A DNA stretch of 64,000 bases from assembly GCA_965279315.1 (NCBI GenBank), contig OZ257145.1, forward strand, positions 1,933,536 to 1,997,535, given 5' to 3'. Source of the DNA: Alphaproteobacteria bacterium. Lineage in GTDB: Bacteria; Pseudomonadota; Alphaproteobacteria; Micavibrionales; UBA2020. The notes under the pieces are model-generated. The model saw nothing but the letters and a program-made list of their open reading frames with translations. It had not been told where the DNA came from and made no database searches. Positions 4,944 to 41,896 of the stretch are shown in pieces (the stretch's first letter is position 1; the number at the start of each line of letters is the position of its first letter). The position numbers were made by a program, and so were the translations under genes.

Positions 4944-5423
4944 TTAACCTCTGTCAAAAGCTTCTTTCAGCTTCTTCGCATCCAGCTTGACCATCTGCCA
5001 CATCGCCTCGTTCATGGCTTGCCGCTTTTTCTTGTTCTTGCTGGTCTGCCATTTCATGATCTGGTCGGGGAAAACCTGCCAGCGGATGCCGTATTTATCA
5101 ATCACCCAGCCGCATTGCACCGGCTGGCCGCCGCCACTGGAAAGTTTTTTCCAGTATGTGTCGATCTCGCGCTGCGTCTTGCACGGCACGGTCATGGAGA
5201 ATGAATCGTTGAACTCTTTGGGAACGAAGCCATTCAGCAGCATGATTTTCTGCCCGCGCACGGTCAGCTCGATCGTCAGCACAGAGCCTTCTTTGACACC
5301 CATCGGGTTCGGCCCCCAATAGGATGTCGCGCCGATCTTGGTGTCCTTGAAAACGGATTTGTAAAATTTGGCCATCTCCGACGCCTTGTCGTTCGACCAG
5401 ATGCAGATGTAGTTTTTTGCCAT
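4944..5423 (-). CDS. VOC/glyoxalase-superfamily protein (PhnB-like, 3-demethylubiquinone-9 3-methyltransferase-domain family)
   Basis: ORF 4944..5600 trimmed to Met60 (MAKNYICIWSND..). It contains KFYKSVFKD, LTIELTVRGQKIMLLNG, CKTQREIDTYWKKLS and QCGWVIDKYGIRWQV. The upstream part of the ORF runs into a repeat element. Confidence 0.7.
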   Translation of the reverse strand: MAKNYICIWSNDKASEMAKFYKSVFKDTKIGATSYWGPNPMGVKEGSVLTIELTVRGQKIMLLNGFVPKEFNDSFSMTVPCKTQREIDTYWKKLSSGGGQPVQCGWVIDKYGIRWQVFPDQIMKWQTSKNKKKRQAMNEAMWQMVKLDAKKLKEAFDRG

Positions 5424-5506
5424 GCGTGAATTCTCCCTTGGGGTGAAGTGTAGCGCGCGGCTGTAATGCTGTATAGGGGCGACGCGATATTGAAGCGGGC
5501 GTGCTT

Positions 5507-5653
5507 CCCTTCTCCTTTGGGAGAAGGAGGGGCCCGTCGCTCTTTCTTGCGGCGGGAGGATGAGGGTACTCCGTCGGCGTCGGGCTTTCACGTTGACCAA
5601 GTACCCTCACCTCTGTCGCTTCGCGACATCTCCTCTCCCAAAAGGAGAGGAGA
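5507..5653. repeat. Type-2 structured repeat (two inverted half-units)
   Basis: The left half contains hairpin CTTCTCC-TTTG-GGAGAAG followed by GAGGATGAGGGTAC. The right half is GTACCCTCACCTCTGTCGCTTCGCGACA followed by hairpin TCTCCTCTCC-CAAAA-GGAGAGGAGA. The right half is nearly identical (reverse complement) to 11112..11170. Confidence 0.8.
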
Positions 5654-5660
5654 AAAAGTA

Positions 5661-5692
5661 AACGGCCCGCCTCGGGAAGAAGGCGGGCCGTT
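5661..5692 (-). terminator. Rho-independent terminator of recA
   Basis: AACGGCCCGCC / GGCGGGCCGTT form an 11-bp stem. On the minus strand it is followed by TACTTTTTCT, about 60 nt after the recA stop. Confidence 0.7.
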
Positions 5693-5750
5693 CGGGGTAA
5701 GAAGAAAGCAATGGCTACGTCTGTTGTGTGTGAGCGGGGGTTATCAGGGG

Positions 5751-6896
<1,146 letters not shown>

Positions 6897-33003: not shown

Positions 33004-34620
33004 TTACAGGTTGATCTTGCGGTTCGGCTTTTTGTTGAACACGGGCGCGTCCTGCGGCTTGTCGTCATTCGCGACATCCGCCGCCGCATCGGGCGAGGGC
33101 GCAATCGCGGCCTTCAGGTCGTCAACCGCTTCGCCCATCGCTTTTTTCTGCGCTTCGGCGGCGATACGTTCTGCCGCCAGCCGTTCTTTTTCCTGCTGAC
33201 GTTCATAGGCGGTCTGGCGCTCTTTCGCTTCGCGTTCTTCGCGGGCGACCGGGTCTTCGAACCATTCGCGGCGTTTGCGCGCCAGCAGCTTGTCCGCGCC
33301 CACGCCAAGGCCGCCACCCGCCGCCATGCCCAGCATGGTGATCAGGATCACGTTCAGCCATTTGAAGGTATGCACATCGAAACCGTTTTCGTAGTTCTGG
33401 TCGTACATCGACCGCGCGGTCTTCATGATGTCGGAGCGCAGTTCGTTCGCGTTGCCCGGTTTTTCATGCAGCACGACATCGACGTAATTGCGGATCATGC
33501 GCTCCAGCTCCGGCGCTTTCGCGGCGGAAAAATGGATGCCGTCGGTCACGCCATGCGCCGCCTCGATGGTGCGCGCGGTGCGGGTTTCGGCAGTTTCGGC
33601 CAGCTGGTATTCGGCGGGGCCGCTATCCGACCTGGAATAGGTGCGGTAATGTTCGTTATGCGCCGTGCGCAGGGCCTGTTGCAGCGCGCCCGACAGGCTC
33701 GTCAGCGCCTGATATTCCCCCGCCGCCTGCGGCGCGTATTTCAGGTAGTTAGAGCCGCTCGCCCAGGTATTGGCGAATTTCAGGTATTCATCCGCGGTCG
33801 GCACATGTTCCTTCAATTCGCGCGCCATGCTCTGGCGGATCGCTTCCTGGTTTTCGCCATGCGTCATCTTGGCGATGTAGAGGCGTTCCTGCACGGAGAG
33901 GTCGGGGTTGCGCTCCATGAAATTCTGCAGCAGGCGCGCGGCCTGTTGGGCCTGCGCCTGATTGAAGGTGTAGCTGTGCCAGCTGTAGTCGTACACTTCT
34001 TCGGTATGGTGCGTTGTCGTGCATTTGCCGTTGCTGCAGCTTTCGGTCGTGTAATGGCGCGTATGCGTCACGTCGCGGCGGTGATAGCTCCATGAATCAT
34101 CAAACGCCGACTTGATGGCGGGCAGGGCGCGGTTGGCGTCTTCCAGCTTGGCGACCGATTCAAGCGCGGCGCGGGAATCCTGCGGCATCGCTTCGGTGTA
34201 TTCGCTGATCAGCGCGTGTTTTTTCAAAGACGCGTCGATGCGCGTCTGCAGTTCATGCGCGAAAACGGCATGGCTCTTGTTGATGTGCAGGGCGATGTTG
34301 TTGCTCTCGAACACTTTCATCGTGATGTCGTTGTTCGCGGCATAGAACCTTGTGAGGGCGGGCACGGGCTGCGATGCCTTGTTAAAATCCGCGCTGATCT
34401 GCTCGATCTCGGAAAAGGCCAACGGAATTTCGCCGGCCTTGGATGCGTAATGCCTTGTCGACAAACCGCCCGCCAGCACAAGGCCCAGCGTCACGCCGAT
34501 CCAGATTTCGGCCGAAGTGTTGAACAGTTTATGGCGCGACCATTTAAACGCGCGCTTGTACCACGGGTCGGTCGAGGGCTGCAGCAGGCTGTTGTCGTTG
34601 CGCGATTTGAAAATGGACAT
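33004..34620 (-). CDS. Hypothetical membrane protein with a C-terminal charged coiled-coil tail
   Basis: TM helix near the N-terminus (IWIGVTLGLVLAGGL) and a second near residue 430 (WLNVILITMLGMAAGGGLGVGA). The tail is REEREAKERQTAYERQQEKERLAAERIAAEAQKKA. Confidence 0.7.
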   Translation of the reverse strand: MSIFKSRNDNSLLQPSTDPWYKRAFKWSRHKLFNTSAEIWIGVTLGLVLAGGLSTRHYASKAGEIPLAFSEIEQISADFNKASQPVPALTRFYAANNDITMKVFESNNIALHINKSHAVFAHELQTRIDASLKKHALISEYTEAMPQDSRAALESVAKLEDANRALPAIKSAFDDSWSYHRRDVTHTRHYTTESCSNGKCTTTHHTEEVYDYSWHSYTFNQAQAQQAARLLQNFMERNPDLSVQERLYIAKMTHGENQEAIRQSMARELKEHVPTADEYLKFANTWASGSNYLKYAPQAAGEYQALTSLSGALQQALRTAHNEHYRTYSRSDSGPAEYQLAETAETRTARTIEAAHGVTDGIHFSAAKAPELERMIRNYVDVVLHEKPGNANELRSDIMKTARSMYDQNYENGFDVHTFKWLNVILITMLGMAAGGGLGVGADKLLARKRREWFEDPVAREEREAKERQTAYERQQEKERLAAERIAAEAQKKAMGEAVDDLKAAIAPSPDAAADVANDDKPQDAPVFNKKPNRKINL

Positions 34621-34753
34621 GATGACCCTCGGGCGAAATGGCTTTTTTTGATTTCGAAGAATGTATCAAAACCGGCATCTTTATGCAATTTGATTTTCAT
34701 AATTGAATTACGCTAAAAATATCCTTTAATAACAATGGATTATTTTAAATAAA

Positions 34754-34782
34754 TTGACGTTTTATTCCATAATCAATATAAC
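34754..34782 (+). promoter_or_regulatory. sigma70-type promoter for the ankyrin gene
   Basis: TTGACG, a 17-nt spacer, then TATAAC, inside an AT-rich divergent intergenic region. A small hairpin CCCGCA-GAGG-TGCGGG lies between it and the RBS. Confidence 0.5.
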
Positions 34783-34815
34783 GACACATCCCCGCAGAGG
34801 TGCGGGACAGCAGGA

Positions 34816-36369
34816 GTGAAAAAATTGCCCGATGAAAAAAACGTCGAATTCTCATCATTGACCAAAGAGCGCAGCGAAAAACTTTTCGTGTCGCAGAAGC
34901 TCAAACTTTTCATCCTGACCGGCCAGCCCGATGCCGACGGCACACATTCCAGCCTTGCCATCAAGCCTTTCCATCAGTTGAGCAAAGACGAACGCGCTGC
35001 GCTGACTGCGAAGGCGGAGCCGCACGGGCCCGCTTCAAAAATTTCCATCATCAAACAGGGTGACGGCCTTTCCTTCACCGACGAGATGACGGGCAAGACG
35101 ACCGTCACGCCGCTGCGCCACCTTGACACCGATGTGCGCGAAAAACTCTCCGACCCGTTCAAGCGCCTCTCGTCTTATGACGCGGCGAAAATCGCCCTGC
35201 GCCGCAAATTCGCGGCGGGGGTGCTGGGCGTTGCGGGGCTGGGCGGCGGGTTGGGTGCGGCATACAACGCGGGCGTTTTCGAACCGCTGTCCGATATGAC
35301 GACGCGCGTGTTTGCGCCGGAAGCCAAGCCCGCGGACGCGCCGACAGTCGCGCCCCTCGTCGAATTGACGGGCGCGCGTGAAAAAAATGCGCTGAAATTC
35401 GATGAAAATCCCGCGATGGTTGAATATCTCGGCCAGCAGATGGATTCTTTCCCGCAGCGCGAGAAGCAATTCCTTTACACCGTCATGGTGGGGGAGGCGC
35501 AGAAGGCGGCCGACCTGCTGGTCAGCAAAGACGGCGCGGAAATCCTCAAGCAGGCCGGCAGCCTTGCCATGATTATCGCGACACGGAACGGCGACCTCGA
35601 CATGATCCGCGTGTTGCATGGTGCGGGGCAATCGACGAACCAGACCTATCACCCCACGACCTATGCGGCCGAAGATGTATGGGTGCCGCTGGTCGATGCG
35701 ATCGAGCGCGGCTTGCCGAAAACGACGGAGCTGCTGCTGAAGCTCGGCGCAGATCCGGAACAGCGCGACAACCCGCGCCGCCCGACACCCTATATGCTGG
35801 CCGCCTATTCACCGCTGATCGATACGGATGTTGCGGTCGAAGTGATGGACAAGCTCCAGAAAGGCGGCGCGAAACTGGAGGCGCTCAGCCCCTATGGTGC
35901 CGACGCGCTGATGCACACGATTACGGCTTCGGACGGCGATGCACGCAAATTTGAAAAGGCCTTGTCCGTTCTGCCCGATGCGAAGGCCGCGGTGAACAAG
36001 CCCTATCGCGTTTACAGGACCGCCGTGGGCTGGGTCGGCGGCTGGACGCTGCTGATGGAGGAAATCGAACGCCAGAGCTATCGCGGCAATGCCGATAATG
36101 CGATCGTGAAATCCATGTTCGCGCATGGCGCGAATGTGAACGCGAAAAACGAAGCAGGCTGGACCGCGCTGCATATGGCGGCGGAACTCGACCAGCTGGA
36201 CACGGTCAGGATGCTGGTCAAGGCCGGCGCAAATATCCACGCCCGCGATAACAACGGCCAGACCGCGCTTGATGTCGCGAAGAAATCCGATCTCGAACCC
36301 GTGCGCGTCCGCAATTACCTGCAGGGGCTGATGCAGGTGAAGCCGAAGGTGCTCGCGCCTGCGGGCTGA
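34816..36369 (+). CDS. Ankyrin-repeat protein (517 aa)
   Basis: Canonical ANK units near the C-terminus: GWTALHMAAELDQLDTVRMLVKAGANIHARDNNGQTALDVA. Further units include ATRNGDLDMIRVLHGAG and AIERGLPKTTELLLKLGADP. The start may be GTG 34816 or TTG 34825 (AGGAG 8 nt upstream of the latter). Confidence 0.8.
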   Translation: MKKLPDEKNVEFSSLTKERSEKLFVSQKLKLFILTGQPDADGTHSSLAIKPFHQLSKDERAALTAKAEPHGPASKISIIKQGDGLSFTDEMTGKTTVTPLRHLDTDVREKLSDPFKRLSSYDAAKIALRRKFAAGVLGVAGLGGGLGAAYNAGVFEPLSDMTTRVFAPEAKPADAPTVAPLVELTGAREKNALKFDENPAMVEYLGQQMDSFPQREKQFLYTVMVGEAQKAADLLVSKDGAEILKQAGSLAMIIATRNGDLDMIRVLHGAGQSTNQTYHPTTYAAEDVWVPLVDAIERGLPKTTELLLKLGADPEQRDNPRRPTPYMLAAYSPLIDTDVAVEVMDKLQKGGAKLEALSPYGADALMHTITASDGDARKFEKALSVLPDAKAAVNKPYRVYRTAVGWVGGWTLLMEEIERQSYRGNADNAIVKSMFAHGANVNAKNEAGWTALHMAAELDQLDTVRMLVKAGANIHARDNNGQTALDVAKKSDLEPVRVRNYLQGLMQVKPKVLAPAG

Positions 36370-36910: not shown

Positions 36911-37675
36911 TCAAAAGGTTACATCATCCCGCGTCACGCGCGCGATGGTCAGCACATAAACTTGGGCGGCGCCGGATTTTTTCAAGATGCGGGCGCATTC
37001 GTTGAGGGTTGCGCCGCTGGTGAAGACGTCATCGACCAGCAGGATGTTCTTGCCGCGCAAAGCAGCCGCCTGTTTTTCGTCGACGGCGAACGCGCCGCGC
37101 ACATTGGCGTGGCGTTCCTTGCGGCTCAGGCCTTTTTGCTTCACCGTGTAGCGGGGGCGGGTGAGGGCATCGGGGGCGAAAATGCGGTCGGTGCGTTTCG
37201 CCAGCATCTCGCCCAGAACCGCCGACTGGTTGAAACGGCGCTGCCACAACCGGCGGGAATGCAGCGGCACGGGGATGATGATATCGGTATCGGCGATCAT
37301 TTCCGCACCTGCGCGCGCCAGCCACGGCACGAAGGTCTGCACGGTATGCATCCGGTCGCCATATTTGAACCCCATGACAAGTTTCCGGCTGGCGTCGTTA
37401 TAGACGACAGCCGACCGCGCGCGGGTGAATGCCGGTTCTTCGTCGATGCAACCGGCGCAGAGGCTGCCCATCGGGCTGTCGAAGCCGAACGGCACGCCGC
37501 AGGTTTCGCAGAACGGATTTTCGATGAAGGACAGTTCCGACCAGAAAGCGGGGGAAACCATGCCCGGCGCATCCACAACCGCGCCCGATCCTGCGCAGCG
37601 GGGCGGCAGGATGATATTTAGCGTGGTATTCCAAAGGCTTGCTATGGAACGGGTCTTGGCGGTGCGGCTGTGCAT
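36911..37675 (-). CDS. comF: ComF-family phosphoribosyltransferase-domain protein
   Basis: N-terminal Cys-rich region (PPRCAGSG..FCETCGVPF..CAGC) and the PRTase motif ILLVDDVFTSGATLNECA. Confidence 0.85.
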   Translation of the reverse strand: MHSRTAKTRSIASLWNTTLNIILPPRCAGSGAVVDAPGMVSPAFWSELSFIENPFCETCGVPFGFDSPMGSLCAGCIDEEPAFTRARSAVVYNDASRKLVMGFKYGDRMHTVQTFVPWLARAGAEMIADTDIIIPVPLHSRRLWQRRFNQSAVLGEMLAKRTDRIFAPDALTRPRYTVKQKGLSRKERHANVRGAFAVDEKQAAALRGKNILLVDDVFTSGATLNECARILKKSGAAQVYVLTIARVTRDDVTF

Positions 37676-37853
37676 GGGCTTGAAATTTGCCGTAAAAACG
37701 CCAATTTATCAAGGTCTAACCCATTTTCCCTAAAGTTCTTGTTATTACAAGGGTGTTATCATAATATGTCACAGTTTTATCAGTCAGGGAGACGTAAGGG
37801 TGCGTTTCTCTGTATAATGGAGAGATTGAGTTCAGACTCCCAAGGGCGCGTGA

Positions 37854-40607
37854 GTGTCAAAGGTCGATAGGACAGAAATAGCCGAACAGGTGGCAGCCAG
37901 CATCCGGAATTTCTCGGAACTGGCGAAGGACGAAGCCACGCGCGCGCGCGCCGTCATCGAAATGCCCGAATTTATCCAGCAAAAGGCCGCGCTGATTTCC
38001 GCGCACTTCCTGCTGCCCGCCGGCGCCCGCGTGGTCGATATGGGCTGTGAACGGGGGGCGGTCACTTACGTGCTCGCGCTGCTCAACCCCCGCGTTGAAA
38101 TCATCGGCATCGACATGGATGCCAAGGCCATCGATTTTGCGCGCAAGACCTACCGCCTGCCCAACCTGTCGTTCCGCGCGGCGGATATTTCCATTCCCGA
38201 AATGGAAGACGAAACAATCGACGGCATCATCAATTCCAACATGCTGCACCATGTCTATTCGGCGAACAGCTATAACCCCGATGAAGTGACAGCGCTGCTG
38301 GAACGCCAGATCCAGAAGCTGAAAACCGGCGGCACGATGCTGATCCGCGATTACATGATGCCGCCCGAGGGCGAGTATGTGATGCTGGAACTGCCCAACG
38401 TGCCGAGCCAGGGCAACACGCCGATGGAGCTGTCGGATGCCGACCTGCTTGTCCACTTCTCGCAAAACGCGCGGCCCATGGCGTCGGGCTGCGAAGGGTT
38501 CTTTATCGAGGAACTGATGCCGCGCCGCGACGGCACGCGCCTGTTCCGCCTGCCGCATAAATGGGCGCTGGAATTCGTGCACCGCAAGAATTACCGCAAG
38601 GACTGGACGAGCGAGCTTTCCGAAGAATACACGTTCTTCACGCATGGCGATTACCGCCGCGAATTCGCGCGCCTCGGCATGCGCATGGTGTTCTCCGCCC
38701 CGCACTGGAACCAGTGGGTGGTGAAGAACTGCTTCAAGGGCCGTTTCCAGCTGTATGACGAAGATTACACGCCCATGAACGCGCCGCCCACGAACTACTT
38801 CATCGTGGCGCAAAAGGTGGCGGACAAGCAGTCTCTGGTGATCGAGGAACGCCGCCCGTCGCAAAAACCCGTCGGCGATCTGCAGATCATGATCGTGCGC
38901 GACAAAAAATCGGGCGCGCTGCATGAACTGGTCAAGCGCCCCGGCGAATATTGCGACATCGTGCCGTTCCGCATCACGCCGGATAACCGCCTTGTGATCT
39001 ATGTGCGCTCCGGCTATCCGCGCCCCATCGTCAACGCGGTGTCGCGCGGCTCCCACAACCTTGACGGCAAAAAATGGTCGGGCCACCTGATCGAGCCGAT
39101 CACGATGGACACGGTCAACATGACCGACGACGTCGAAGAAAACCGCAAGATGATTTTCGGGTATGTCGACAACTACGCCAGCCTGCGCCCGAAATCGGAA
39201 GAAAGCTGGTATGTGGGCGACACCTATTTCCCCAGCCCCGACCGTATCGACGAGGCGATCGAGCCTGTGTTTGTCGAGGTTGAAAACGCGCAGCGCACCA
39301 GCTGGCCGATCAAGGAAGACAAGGAAGTCAACTTCACCGAGATCGGCACGATCATGGAGCTGGATGCGGCCGATATTATCCTGGCATCGCAGGTCGGCCT
39401 GCTGCCCGAACCGCGCCTTGAACTGCATGTGTTCGAATTGATGTCGCGCTACAACATCCCGTTCCCGAAATGGATCGGCGAAGTGATGCCGAAAATGCCG
39501 GGGCAGCCGACAAAATCCAAAGACCCCGAAGACATGCTGGCCGAATGCGAGCCGTGCGATTTCGAGGAAGAGCAACGCGCCCCCGTCATCCTGAAACCCG
39601 TGAAATCGGTGTTCGTGGAGGAGGGCAAGGTCGGCAAGGCCGCGCGCGGGCTGTCGGCGCAGGATATCGAATTCATCATGACCGAAGACGGCATCGAAAA
39701 TATCGCCGTCGTCATTCCCGTCAGCCGCGACTGGGACAACAACCTGCTCGTCTCGCTCGACCCGAAAATCCTGCCCGTGCCGAACCGCCTGGGCGGCGAC
39801 GGCGCGATGCTGAACGCGCCCAGTTTCATGCTGCCGAAAAACGTGCGCTCGATTGACGATGCGAAAGCCTTCATCGCCGAAAAATTCCACGTGCCGGTCG
39901 AACAGGTCGGCAAGCTGGGCGAAAGCTATTTCACGCATACCGGCGTCACGCCGCAGCGCGTCTATCCCTTTATCGTGTCATCGCCGCCCGATGTCGGATC
40001 CGGCCCGAAACGCAGCTATACGCCGCTGAAACGCCTGTGGCGTTTGCTGGGCTTTGCGCGGTTTGCAGGGGGCTTGCTGAAAATGCTGGCGCGCACGCAT
40101 ATGTCGATGGATGCGAACAGCGACATGAGCCTGAGCCGCAGCCCCGTCAACCTCAAGAGCACGGGTTTCTCCCTGTCCACAGAAAAGGTCGCGGTGGAGG
40201 CGAAAAACGTCGGCTATTCCGCAGCGCCCTCGCGCGTCCTCGGCCAGCGCGGCGCGGCAGGCGGCGGTGGGGGCGGCGGCGCGGCTGCAAAACCTGCCGA
40301 TACCTATACGCCCTTCCAGCCGCCCAAGGGCATTGATCCCGCGCTGCTGGCGCAAAGCCAGGCTGCGCAGGCGCTCATCGAAAGCATCGCGGCGCCGCGC
40401 ATCGGCAAGCGGCTTGTCGACAGCTATGCGCAGGCCAAGAAACTGCTGAAGGGCGGCGACGAAGCCATCCACATGCACGAAACCCCCACGGTCGCGCAGA
40501 TCGACAAGGATATCGTCGCCGTCGCCGACCAGCTCAAAAAAATCCGCAACGACAAAATCCCCACGCTGGAACTCCGCACGCCGGACAACAAGGGCGGGAA
40601 GATTTAA
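37854..40607 (+). CDS. Large fusion protein: N-terminal class I SAM-dependent methyltransferase plus about 700 aa unassigned
   Basis: GTG start after an AT-rich upstream region. Motif I is ARVVDMGCERGAVT, post-I is IIGIDMD, and later DGIINSNMLHHV. High GC3 runs throughout. The antisense ORF 37857..39938 is Arg/His-rich. Confidence 0.75.
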   Translation: MSKVDRTEIAEQVAASIRNFSELAKDEATRARAVIEMPEFIQQKAALISAHFLLPAGARVVDMGCERGAVTYVLALLNPRVEIIGIDMDAKAIDFARKTYRLPNLSFRAADISIPEMEDETIDGIINSNMLHHVYSANSYNPDEVTALLERQIQKLKTGGTMLIRDYMMPPEGEYVMLELPNVPSQGNTPMELSDADLLVHFSQNARPMASGCEGFFIEELMPRRDGTRLFRLPHKWALEFVHRKNYRKDWTSELSEEYTFFTHGDYRREFARLGMRMVFSAPHWNQWVVKNCFKGRFQLYDEDYTPMNAPPTNYFIVAQKVADKQSLVIEERRPSQKPVGDLQIMIVRDKKSGALHELVKRPGEYCDIVPFRITPDNRLVIYVRSGYPRPIVNAVSRGSHNLDGKKWSGHLIEPITMDTVNMTDDVEENRKMIFGYVDNYASLRPKSEESWYVGDTYFPSPDRIDEAIEPVFVEVENAQRTSWPIKEDKEVNFTEIGTIMELDAADIILASQVGLLPEPRLELHVFELMSRYNIPFPKWIGEVMPKMPGQPTKSKDPEDMLAECEPCDFEEEQRAPVILKPVKSVFVEEGKVGKAARGLSAQDIEFIMTEDGIENIAVVIPVSRDWDNNLLVSLDPKILPVPNRLGGDGAMLNAPSFMLPKNVRSIDDAKAFIAEKFHVPVEQVGKLGESYFTHTGVTPQRVYPFIVSSPPDVGSGPKRSYTPLKRLWRLLGFARFAGGLLKMLARTHMSMDANSDMSLSRSPVNLKSTGFSLSTEKVAVEAKNVGYSAAPSRVLGQRGAAGGGGGGGAAAKPADTYTPFQPPKGIDPALLAQSQAAQALIESIAAPRIGKRLVDSYAQAKKLLKGGDEAIHMHETPTVAQIDKDIVAVADQLKKIRNDKIPTLELRTPDNKGGKI

Positions 40608-40615
40608 CTTGAATT

Positions 40616-40984
40616 GTCATTCCGGCGAACGCCGGAATCCACGGACTTCACCGGTTCCCCATGAGCAGCCAGTATTTTGTTTATATCCTTGCCAGCAAAA
40701 AGCACGGTACGCTTTATATCGGCGTCACAAGCAATCTGGTGAAAAGAGTGCATGAACACAAGAACAGGCTTGCGGAAGGTTTCACGAAGAAATACAACGT
40801 TTCTCAGTTAGTGCATTTTGAATGCTGTGATGATGTAAACGCTGCCATACAACGCGAAAAGCAGCTGAAAGAATGGCGGCGCGACTGGAAAATTGATCTG
40901 ATCGAGAAAGAAAATCCGGACTGGGCTGATTTGTACGCAACGATAACGGCGTAGTCCGTGGACCCCGGCTTTCGCCGGGGTGAC
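40616..40984. mobile_element. REP-type element carrying a GIY-YIG nuclease ORF (candidate autonomous copy of the hairpin-repeat family)
   Basis: The 31-nt ends are GTCATTCCGGCGAACGCCGGAATCCACGGAC (left) and GTCCGTGGACCCCGGCTTTCGCCGGGGTGAC (right). They are inverted repeats matching at 26/31 positions, and the differences are compensatory. Confidence 0.55.
40661..40954 (+). CDS. GIY-YIG nuclease family protein (UPF0213/YhbQ-like, 97 aa)
   Basis: YFVYILASKKHGTLYIGVTSNLVKRVHEHK..YNVSQLVHFE..AIQREKQLKEWRRDWK. The GIY and YIG elements and the conserved Arg/Glu are present. Confidence 0.9.
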   Translation: MSSQYFVYILASKKHGTLYIGVTSNLVKRVHEHKNRLAEGFTKKYNVSQLVHFECCDDVNAAIQREKQLKEWRRDWKIDLIEKENPDWADLYATITA

Positions 40985-40993
40985 AGGAATGTG

Positions 40994-41896
40994 ATGAGCG
41001 ATAATACTATTCAAGTCTTCGACCGCACCCTTCTCCGCCGCCGCCGCGACCGCGCGGCTGCGGGCATTTCTTCGTTCGATTTCCTGTATCAGGATGTCGC
41101 GCTGCGGCTCTCCGACAGGCTTGACCTGATCAAGAAAGAATTCGCAACCGTCCTCGACCTCGGCGGGCATGGGGTGATGGCGGAGCATCTGCGCGTGCGG
41201 GCGGGGACGCAGTTTGTGGCGACGTCGGATGTGTCATCCGGCATGGCCGCGCGGGCGGCGCATGGCGTGGCGGCGGATGAGGAATTTTTGCCGTTCAAAC
41301 CCGGCAGCCTCGATGCCGTGGTCAGCAACCTTGCGCTGCATTGGGTGAACGACCTGCCGGGCGCGCTGGTGCAGATCCGCCGTGCGCTAAAGGCAGACGG
41401 GCTGTTCCTAGCGGCCGTGCCGGGCGGCGAAACCTTGCGCGAATTGCGTCAATCACTTCTGGAGGCGGAAATCGCCGTTTCGGGCGGCGCATCCCCCCGC
41501 GTATCGCCCTTTATCGACGCGCGCGACATGGGCGCGCTGTTGCAGCGCGGCGGCTTCGCGCTGCCGGTTGTGGACAGCGACATCATCACCGTCGATTATT
41601 CCAGCCCGCTGAAGCTGATGCAGGACCTGCGCGGCATGGGCGCGACGAACGCGGTTTATAACCGCCTGCTGAAACCGACGCGCCGCGCCGTGATACTGGA
41701 AGCGGCAATAATCTATGCGGAAAAATTCGGCGATGCGCAGGGGCGCGTGCCTGCCACCTTCCAGATCATCTACGCCATCGGCTGGTCGCCCCATACCAGC
41801 CAGCAAAAACCCATCCAGCCCGGCAGCGCGAAAATGAAGCTGGCCGATGCGCTGGGCACCGAAGAAATTTCGACGGGCGAAAAAGCGCGGCCTTAA
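40994..41896 (+). CDS. Class I SAM-dependent methyltransferase (NDUFAF5/BioC-like, conserved in alphaproteobacteria)
   Basis: ORF 40958..41896 trimmed to Met13, because the first 12 codons are REP read-through. It contains FDRTLLRRRRDRAA, VLDLGGHG, DAVVSNLALHWVNDLPGAL, and LKADGLFLAAVPGGETLRELR. Confidence 0.85.
   Translation: MSDNTIQVFDRTLLRRRRDRAAAGISSFDFLYQDVALRLSDRLDLIKKEFATVLDLGGHGVMAEHLRVRAGTQFVATSDVSSGMAARAAHGVAADEEFLPFKPGSLDAVVSNLALHWVNDLPGALVQIRRALKADGLFLAAVPGGETLRELRQSLLEAEIAVSGGASPRVSPFIDARDMGALLQRGGFALPVVDSDIITVDYSSPLKLMQDLRGMGATNAVYNRLLKPTRRAVILEAAIIYAEKFGDAQGRVPATFQIIYAIGWSPHTSQQKPIQPGSAKMKLADALGTEEISTGEKARP

Follow-up and report, generated by a model that had tools for sequence, protein, structure and literature searches.

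A methyltransferase gene with a long C-terminal extension

The window analysed here is a 64,000-nucleotide (nt) stretch of contig OZ257145.1 from an alphaproteobacterial genome (Micavibrionales, UBA2020), and our subject is a gene on its plus strand (37854..40607) encoding a protein of 917 amino acids (aa) from a GTG startcodon, as placed by the first-pass annotation, which was made from the DNA letters and a list of open reading frames (ORFs). That annotation described an orphan fusion protein with an S-adenosylmethionine (SAM) methyltransferase head and about 700 aa with two Nudix-like segments. We find a methyltransferase of class I, followed by a module predicted to consist of two tandem Nudix-fold domains, for which neither Pfam nor NCBIfam has a model, and a tail restricted to closer relatives. 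The parts of the gene and its upstream region are as follows.

37854..40607, plus strand: whole gene (methyltransferase, tandem Nudix-fold module and tail), 917 aa plus stop, GTG start
37813-37818, plus strand: −10-like TATAAT, 35 nt 5′ of the GTG in the AT-rich divergent intergenic region, invariant in the window and six relatives
37854..38816, plus strand: class I SAM-dependent methyltransferase, aa 1-321, with Rossmann core at aa ~40-170 and lid/extension at aa ~170-321
38844..39449, plus strand: predicted Nudix-fold domain 1, aa 331-532, the better conserved half, from the AlphaFold2 (AF2) module model, Foldseek and conservation counts; R390, D404, E414, S461-P462, E467, R521 and E523, no Nudix box
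39450..39560, plus strand: variable acidic linker, aa 533-569, of varying length and sequence in the alignment and with a low predicted local distance difference test score (pLDDT) in the full-length model
39561..40106, plus strand: predicted Nudix-fold domain 2, aa 570-751, the degenerate half, from AF2 and hhalign, ending in C-terminal helices (Y.PLKRLW...LLKMLARTHM)
40107..40604, plus strand: lineage-specific tail, aa 752-917, with an LSTEK...PSRVLGQRG motif, a Gly/Ala tract and predicted amphipathic helices

The 917-aa ORF is a real gene under strong purifying selection. The ratio of nonsynonymous to synonymous substitution rates (dN/dS, Nei-Gojobori) against seven orthologues was 0.04-0.24 in the methyltransferase, the module and the tail, each taken separately. 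The plus frame has a GC content at third codon positions (GC3) of 0.80, in agreement with the single high-GC3 frame first reported, and the GC content of the gene is 0.605. The AT-rich stretch of about 170 nt noted before the GTG corresponds to the 178 nt intergenic region at 37676-37853 (GC 0.416). The GTG and the first codons (V/M-S-K-V-D) are unchanged in an alignment of the window with six relatives. The TATAAT at 37813-37818 was not called in a generic promoter scan, and it is its conservation alone that marks it as a putative −10 element. The leader between the TATAAT and the GTG (37825-37853, plus strand) contains GGAGAG...CTCCC, largely kept in close relatives, which could pair as a small hairpin.

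An antisense ORF of 693 aa (37857..39938, minus strand) overlaps the gene and was rejected as a gene: since the GC3 signal, all homologues and the purifying selection belong to the plus frame, it is a by-product of GC-rich coding DNA. It does show that long spurious frames arise in this DNA, and this, together with the lack of any Pfam model for aa 322-917, is what speaks for dismissing the 917-aa ORF itself as an orphan, as a gene in decay, or as a chance product of a long frame in GC-rich DNA. We give that reading practically no credence, as it is already refuted by the homologues, by the selection acting on every part and the GC3 of the plus frame, by the startcodon and −10 box kept in relatives, and by a confidently predicted fold. 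The label of orphan did not hold, with 256 homologues in a collection of 5.8 billion proteins, over 100 of them full-length clusters with identities of 38-96%, besides 387 module clusters and 101 genome loci. The first-pass annotation had named two outcomes that would undo it, namely assignment of the C-terminal part to known unrelated domains and frameshifts in close relatives; no such domain was assigned, no such frameshift was seen, and both fail, as does the orphan status, on account of the homologues, the 101 loci and the dN/dS values.

Residues 1-321 are predicted to form an intact class I SAM methyltransferase of small-molecule type, with its SAM-binding motifs whole. The motifs VVDMGCERG, IIGIDMD and INSNMLHH, on which the methyltransferase had been recognised, lie inside the class I methyltransferase match in Pfam, where three models score above their cut-offs over aa 57-168 (PF13847, 52.4 bits against a cut-off of 27, E 6e-14; PF13649, 40.2 against 27; PF08241, 39.2 against 21.2). 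The SAM motifs VDMGCERG (G64, G68), IGID (D87), AADI (D111) and INSN (N127, S128) are invariant or conserved in at least 90% of 37 homologues. The NCBIfam model NF005379 (PRK06922) aligns to aa 56-321 through positions 418-676 of its 677, and because this match runs to residue 321 the domain takes in a lid of about 150 residues, which AF2 modelled at a pLDDT of 80-92, the value for aa 40-320 being about 85-92. The score of 33 bits is far below the cut-off of 602 for this family, in which the methyltransferase lies C-terminal to about 400 residues, whereas in the window protein it is N-terminal with the Nudix-fold module after it. A Foldseek search with the full-length model also bore out the methyltransferase head, with 3MGG matched at E 7e-10 and over 1000 chains of methyltransferases at that value or below; the structural neighbours are small-molecule methyltransferases, such as 3MGG, phosphoethanolamine N-methyltransferases, CmoA and the sugar O-methyltransferases RebM and AtmM.

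The tandem Nudix-fold module

An AF2 model of residues 330-760, based on a 73-sequence alignment which included distant members, had a mean pLDDT of 93.9 and a predicted template modelling (TM) score of 0.92. The two segments picked out by eye at aa ~340-520 and ~570-700 correspond to modelled domains at aa ~331-532 and ~570-751. The description of the C-terminal part thus stood as regards its two Nudix-fold segments, but only ~420 of its about 700 aa are module, with the rest being linker and lineage-specific tail. When searched against the Protein Data Bank (PDB) with Foldseek, the module gave 130 matches at E<1e-3, and the best 50 listed were all Nudix-fold proteins. The four best were chains of EvaA (4J7G/4J7H), the deoxythymidine diphosphate (dTDP)-4-keto-6-deoxyglucose 2,3-dehydratase of Amycolatopsis orientalis, which aligned over 458 columns at E 3.4e-10 (TM 0.55/0.53) and represent the only full-length match among those listed. 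The others of the best 50 were single-domain matches, nearly all from the adenosine diphosphate (ADP)-sugar/nucleoside diphosphate (NDP)-sugar branch, including the E. coli GDP-mannose hydrolase NudK/YffH, ADP-ribose pyrophosphatases such as NudF, and human NUDT5 (E ~4e-6, target TM ~0.65), and in a library of viral models the module matched Nudix hydrolases and ADP-ribose pyrophosphatases. As both the PDB and the viral library returned Nudix proteins, the original call by eye was right. The Nudix homology clan is defined by its fold of ~130 aa, an alpha/beta/alpha arrangement (PMC5389931). The full-length AF2 model came from a shallower alignment and was mediocre in the module region; with that model Foldseek returned methyltransferases only, and the Nudix matches emerged with the module-only model. 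PADLOC returned no match for the module, its single match being that of the methyltransferase domain to mad2 (aa 43-169), and Pfam showed no match to WHD_NrtR or WHD_AraR in the 917-aa protein.

The two halves of the module represent an ancient internal duplication, as judged by aligning half 1 with half 2 in hhalign: the 73-sequence alignment gave a probability of 86.6% and E 4.5e-6 with 166 columns in register, compared with a non-significant E of 0.07 for a shallow alignment of 37 sequences. The canonical Nudix box (GX5EX7REUXEEXGU) is lacking from both, as first stated, with acidic residues in the box helix present in at most 36% (half 1) and 58% (half 2) of the 73 sequences at any position. 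Because the box is lost in both halves, no member of the family can be a conventional Mg-dependent pyrophosphohydrolase. Half 1 does have a set of conserved charged residues, comprising R390 (65 of 73 sequences), D404 (62), E414 (66), E467 (57), R521 (63) and E523 (69), with E467 located in an S-P-x-x-x-x-E loop (S461, P462, E467) that reads PSPGGIxE in distant members. In half 2, the equivalent of E414 is T, V, N or A, and that of E467 is E in 39 sequences and Q in 27, including all 15 of the window's subfamily (Q701). Retention of the charged set in half 1 and loss of its counterparts in half 2 suggest that half 1 forms the one functional pocket and that half 2 is a structural remnant.

The tail beyond the module, of low-complexity and helical character, is found only in the closer subfamily, with distant members ending at about 700-800 aa, and has a low pLDDT in AF2, yet a dN/dS of 0.05-0.24. 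The Gly/Ala tract and helices described for this region are present, the tract at aa 800-814 (with nt 40251-40289 for aa 800-812; about 100 aa before the C-terminus) being followed by predicted helices, but it reads GAAGGGGGGGAAAKP, with seven G where six had been given.

Family, locus and genomic context

The 917-aa protein is encoded by a conserved, vertically inherited gene of Micavibrio-like bacteria. Homologues with a name are labelled as Micavibrio sp., as Alphaproteobacteria or, probably in error, as Bdellovibrionales metagenome-assembled genomes (MAGs), with 'class I SAM-dependent methyltransferase' as their only annotation. A scan of one genome per GTDB species gave the 101 loci, with module identities from 99% down to 31%. 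An exhaustive HMMER search of 1.84 billion representatives with a profile of aa 322-800 gave 387 proteins at E<=1e-3, of which 158 were at E<=1e-30; these are the 387 module clusters (50% level), and some lie outside the Alphaproteobacteria. The conserved unit spans ~400 residues, corresponding to aa ~336-750 of the window protein, and most members are ~700-800 aa long, with the module at positions ~320-730 and the same kind of methyltransferase N-terminal to it. Fusion of methyltransferase and module is the rule across the family. Candidate standalone modules were rejected as such, as most turned out to be fragments from short contigs or else fusions broken by a split or a frameshift. Three MAGs titled 'Bdellovibrionales bacterium' or 'Patescibacteria group bacterium' (L006, L008 and L019) carry the locus at 78-99% identity with the same synteny as the window; these are probably bins of Micavibrio-like Alphaproteobacteria that were given the wrong label or are contaminated.

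Three genes flank the methyltransferase–module gene (hereafter the fusion gene) in the window.

36911-37675, minus strand: ComF-family gene with double zinc ribbon and phosphoribosyltransferase domain (Pfam DZR_2 and Pribosyltran; TIGR00201 comF at 4e-29, below cut-off)
40661-40954, plus strand: GIY-YIG nuclease-family ORF of 97 aa (Pfam PF01541, 6e-16), between the fusion gene and the second methyltransferase
40958..41896, plus strand: BioC-like class I methyltransferase (TIGR02072 BioC at 8.5e-35, below cut-off)

Synteny was surveyed by tblastn over 78 loci, with the window's own neighbours as queries. The ComF-family gene was located divergently upstream in 65 and the BioC-like methyltransferase directly downstream in 69 of these loci, at module identities of 99-31%, and most exceptions had too little flank. 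The first-pass annotation was correct in placing the fusion gene and the GIY-YIG element between comF and a methyltransferase, but the fusion gene is not a recent intruder there: with gene order fixed across this range of module identity, it is a long-standing resident. The fusion gene and the second methyltransferase, separated by gaps of 2-22 nt in L004 and L005, are probably co-transcribed operon partners. The GIY-YIG ORF, in contrast, has the pattern of a small mobile gene or one inserted sporadically, a variable insertion outside the conserved unit: it is single-copy in the window, occupies the same site in L042 only (81% identity), is found elsewhere in L051 (59%), and is absent from L038, which has a fusion gene 98% identical to that of the window.

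Other features of the neighbourhood were noted in passing. The phosphoribosyltransferase domain of the ComF-family gene matches the PADLOC toxin models PsyrT (2.7e-15) and ShosT (3.3e-12), which is probably generic phosphoribosyltransferase similarity. A defence system made up of methyltransferase, Nudix, GIY-YIG and phosphoribosyltransferase components was considered and rejected, as the PADLOC matches are to generic domains only and the GIY-YIG ORF is sporadic. A homologue of the SIR2 family, nicotinamide adenine dinucleotide (NAD)-dependent deacylases, is encoded about 5.5 kb downstream of the fusion gene (46097-46786, plus strand) and is syntenic in seven close relatives (L001, L007, L011, L016, L031, L036 and L042); it may bear on a link to ADP-ribose, yet is too distant to count as evidence. 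Two adjacent genes for proteins of 284 and 197 aa (43479-44333 and 44336-44929, both plus strand), uncharacterised and without Pfam match, are found in unchanged order and at 37-97% identity downstream of ubiG in many relatives. On the other side, genes for a 538-aa protein without Pfam match (33004-34620, minus strand) and a 517-aa protein with C-terminal ankyrin repeats (34816-36369, plus strand) diverge around an AT-rich region (34500-34999, GC 0.448), and ankyrin-repeat genes are also found near the locus in relative L005.

Distant relatives place the module in other company. In one protein (P0203) the methyltransferase and module are preceded by a true NUDIX domain of Pfam, whose N-terminal signature of NUDT9 type is faint, others are fused to a Zeta-toxin-type or APH-type kinase, and one has a Ser/Thr kinase gene immediately upstream. 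A search for co-occurring partner genes, as had been proposed, showed that NrtR recurs at two loci (L087 and L091), about 3-5 kb from modules that are 28% identical to each other. At L087, separate adjacent genes encode the methyltransferase, which also matches NF005379, and the module, and these are divergent from prs-nadV-nadE-...-nrtR. The shared divergent promoter region of 184 nt (6621-6805) contains two near-identical 21 bp palindromes, TTGAGTATTTAGTACTCAA and TTGAGTATTTTTTACTCAA (TTGAGTA-N5-TACTCAA), with the NrtR-type core GT-N7-AC, and these are the only sites with that core in the whole 9.5-kb locus. The published NrtR site has a GT-N7-AC core, and prs-nadV operons and nrtR-draG loci are typical members of NrtR regulons (PMC2330246).

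At L091, about 2.8 kb separate the called module ORF from an nrtR gene upstream of it, whose product is homologous to the NrtR of L087 (40% identity). The module gene here is a frameshifted methyltransferase–module fusion starting about 2 kb from nrtR, and the frameshift, located in the methyltransferase part, led the gene caller to report a 502-aa 'module-only' protein. An ADP-ribosylglycohydrolase is encoded two genes downstream. No GT-N7-AC palindrome was present upstream of the gene at L091; the upstream intergenic region has a nested palindrome, TTAGATGC...ATGCATATATGCAT...GCATCTAA, unlike the GT-N7-AC sites. This region and the interrupted methyltransferase part together take up 4966-5064 and 5064-5813. 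The similar-sized neighbours of 300 and 133 aa at the two loci are not homologous, leaving NrtR as the only recurring gene. The suggestion of ADP-ribose-type substrates in the first-pass annotation agrees with this fusion and context evidence.

Possible functions and comparison with known systems

We favour, with slightly less than even confidence, a reading in which the pocket of half 1 binds a nucleoside-diphosphate-X ligand of the ADP-ribose/NDP-sugar class, and may, like EvaA with its own substrate, subject it to acid/base chemistry that needs no metal, with the fused methyltransferase acting on the same molecule by methylating either the ligand or its product. The whole protein would then be a two-step enzyme modifying a small molecule. 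We infer the ligand class because the best single-domain matches all belong to the ADP-ribose/NDP-sugar branch, and because of the NUDT9-type and kinase fusions and the loci with NrtR. A more specific version, which we consider unlikely, has the module as a metal-independent enzyme with E414 and E467 as acid/base pair and R390 and R521 anchoring the diphosphate, which together with the methyltransferase would make a methylated derivative of ADP-ribose or of a related nucleotide that stems from NAD. If so, the product would be a so far unknown NAD- or ADP-ribose-derived metabolite or signal, made under NrtR control in some bacteria and constitutively in predatory Micavibrio-like bacteria.

Several observations weigh against the two-step reading. 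By sequence, the module shows no significant tie to a family of either Nudix or EvaA type: Pfam found nothing at E<=1 over aa 322-917, nor at E<=10 when 10 module sequences were searched, and searches of aa 322-917 against NCBIfam and against PDB sequences (phmmer and a family profile) were empty, so the Nudix relationship is at the level of fold only. In hhalign, half 1 aligned in register with Escherichia coli NudF and with a profile of four ADP-ribose-type Nudix sequences, but at a non-significant E of 0.01-0.02, while half 2 gave nothing against either. That alignment brings the S461-P462...E467 loop into register with the SPGGTSE loop of NudF, and E162 of the latter, the catalytic base, would on this alignment be the putative counterpart of E467. 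As regards context, a link to NAD or ADP-ribose was seen in 2 of ~7 non-Micavibrio loci and in one fusion, and the other non-Micavibrio contexts are heterogeneous. No NAD-salvage, NrtR or ADP-ribosylglycohydrolase genes were found near the gene in the window and the 78 Micavibrio-type loci, where the synteny with comF and the second methyltransferase may be simply inherited gene order.

The same evidence can be read with the module as a sensor without catalysis of its own, in the manner of the NrtR, DBC1 and TRPM2 Nudix domains, so that an ADP-ribose or NAD metabolite allosterically switches a methyltransferase acting on another substrate, be it protein, RNA, lipid or quinone. Loss of the Nudix box from both halves is a feature shared with non-enzymatic members of the clan (PMC5389931) and with NrtR (PMC2330246), NrtR itself is encoded near the module at two loci, and the Micavibrio-type neighbours are methyltransferases of other pathways (BioC-like, UbiG) and not nucleotide-sugar enzymes. 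The near-universal Glu pair and arginines of half 1, however, look more like a catalytic or substrate-anchoring set than an effector pocket, and the fusion partners are small-molecule enzymes for the same kind of ligand (NUDT9-type hydrolase, Zeta- and APH-type kinases), as is more typical of pathway fusions; we regard a pure sensor as rather unlikely, perhaps one chance in a handful. Less probable still, also when set beside the ADP-ribose-specific version given above, is that the module is a true EvaA-type NDP-hexose 2,3-dehydratase, in which case the fused domain would methylate a sugar on C, N or O and the whole would be a bifunctional enzyme of deoxysugar biosynthesis with dTDP-4-keto-6-deoxyhexose as its substrate. 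EvaA ranks first among the structural matches and alone aligns over the full length of the module, although it may owe its top rank to being the only solved single-chain double-Nudix protein; the asymmetry of an active and a remnant half is the same, and the structural matches of the methyltransferase include RebM and AtmM. The spacing of E414 and E467 is 53 residues, compared with 51 for E139 and E190 of EvaA, a suggestive likeness between residue numbers (those of EvaA from PMC8987622) and not a residue-level superposition. Against a dehydratase, small predatory bacteria carry the family as a conserved, core-like gene and not as a component of secondary-metabolite clusters, and no RmlA/B-type, aminotransferase or glycosyltransferase genes were present in the neighbourhoods called with Pfam, the tblastn panel of 78 loci having included no sugar-pathway queries. 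The 2,3-dehydratase family (Hexose_dehydrat, PF03559) was not among the Pfam matches even at permissive thresholds.

Nudix domains are also standard modules for binding RNA 5′ ends and caps, as in RppH, NudC and Dcp2, and the module could recognise a nucleotide-diphosphate-type 5′ end (an NAD, ADP-ribose or NpnN cap) so that the methyltransferase modifies RNA or cap. The basic, partly disordered tail and the fusion to a class I methyltransferase would suit such a role, but the tail is missing from most of the family, Pfam and NCBIfam showed no RNA-binding domain, the structural neighbours of the module are ADP-sugar/NDP-sugar enzymes and not those of RppH, NudC or MutT type, and the methyltransferase resembles small-molecule enzymes, which makes this role very improbable.

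The fold itself is that of a known clan, and a tandem arrangement of this kind has been solved once before, in EvaA. Like the module, EvaA has two tandem Nudix-fold domains per chain in a similar mutual arrangement, arising from internal duplication with one conserved and one degenerate half as its pockets A and B, and in neither would conventional Nudix hydrolase chemistry be expected. In EvaA the active pocket A requires E139 and E190, whereas pocket B, left over from the duplication, can be dispensed with (PMC8987622). The two proteins differ in that they share 11-12% identity in the structural alignment and no detectable sequence similarity, that EvaA has neither methyltransferase domain nor tail, and that the module gene was not found in deoxysugar or antibiotic clusters in the neighbourhoods inspected.

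With enzymes of the ADP-ribose pyrophosphatase/NDP-sugar branch (NudF, 1G0S/1G9Q; NudK/YffH, 3O52; human NUDT5), each half is predicted to share the fold including the N-terminal beta-sheet extension, and the two halves in one chain mimic the obligate dimer of these enzymes. The module is a single chain and not a homodimer, however, and both halves are without the Nudix box across the family, so that the metal ligands are missing. NrtR, DBC1 and the NUDT9H domain of TRPM2 resemble the module in combining a degenerate Nudix box with a retained fold and an association with ADP-ribose or NAD (PMC2330246, PMC5389931). They differ from it in that the module has no winged-helix DNA-binding domain or channel, is tandem-duplicated and enzyme-fused, and carries a conserved Glu/Arg set which suggests more than effector binding.

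Our search of the literature found no description of the module, nor of its constant fusion to a methyltransferase. What had appeared as 700 aa of nothing is thus a defined unit of ~420 aa with two predicted Nudix folds, almost always fused to one type of methyltransferase, and the domain boundaries and candidate active-site residues given here correct database labels that read 'class I SAM-dependent methyltransferase' or 'hypothetical protein'. Its locus stays the same throughout an order-level group of predatory bacteria, and it has links to ADP-ribose and NAD genes in other phyla, making it a candidate for a so far unknown methylation chemistry on nucleotide sugars or ADP-ribose, if the function inferred here is correct. 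Beside the EvaA dehydratases, the module represents a second lineage of single-chain double-Nudix proteins, and a further reuse of the Nudix fold without its hydrolase motif.

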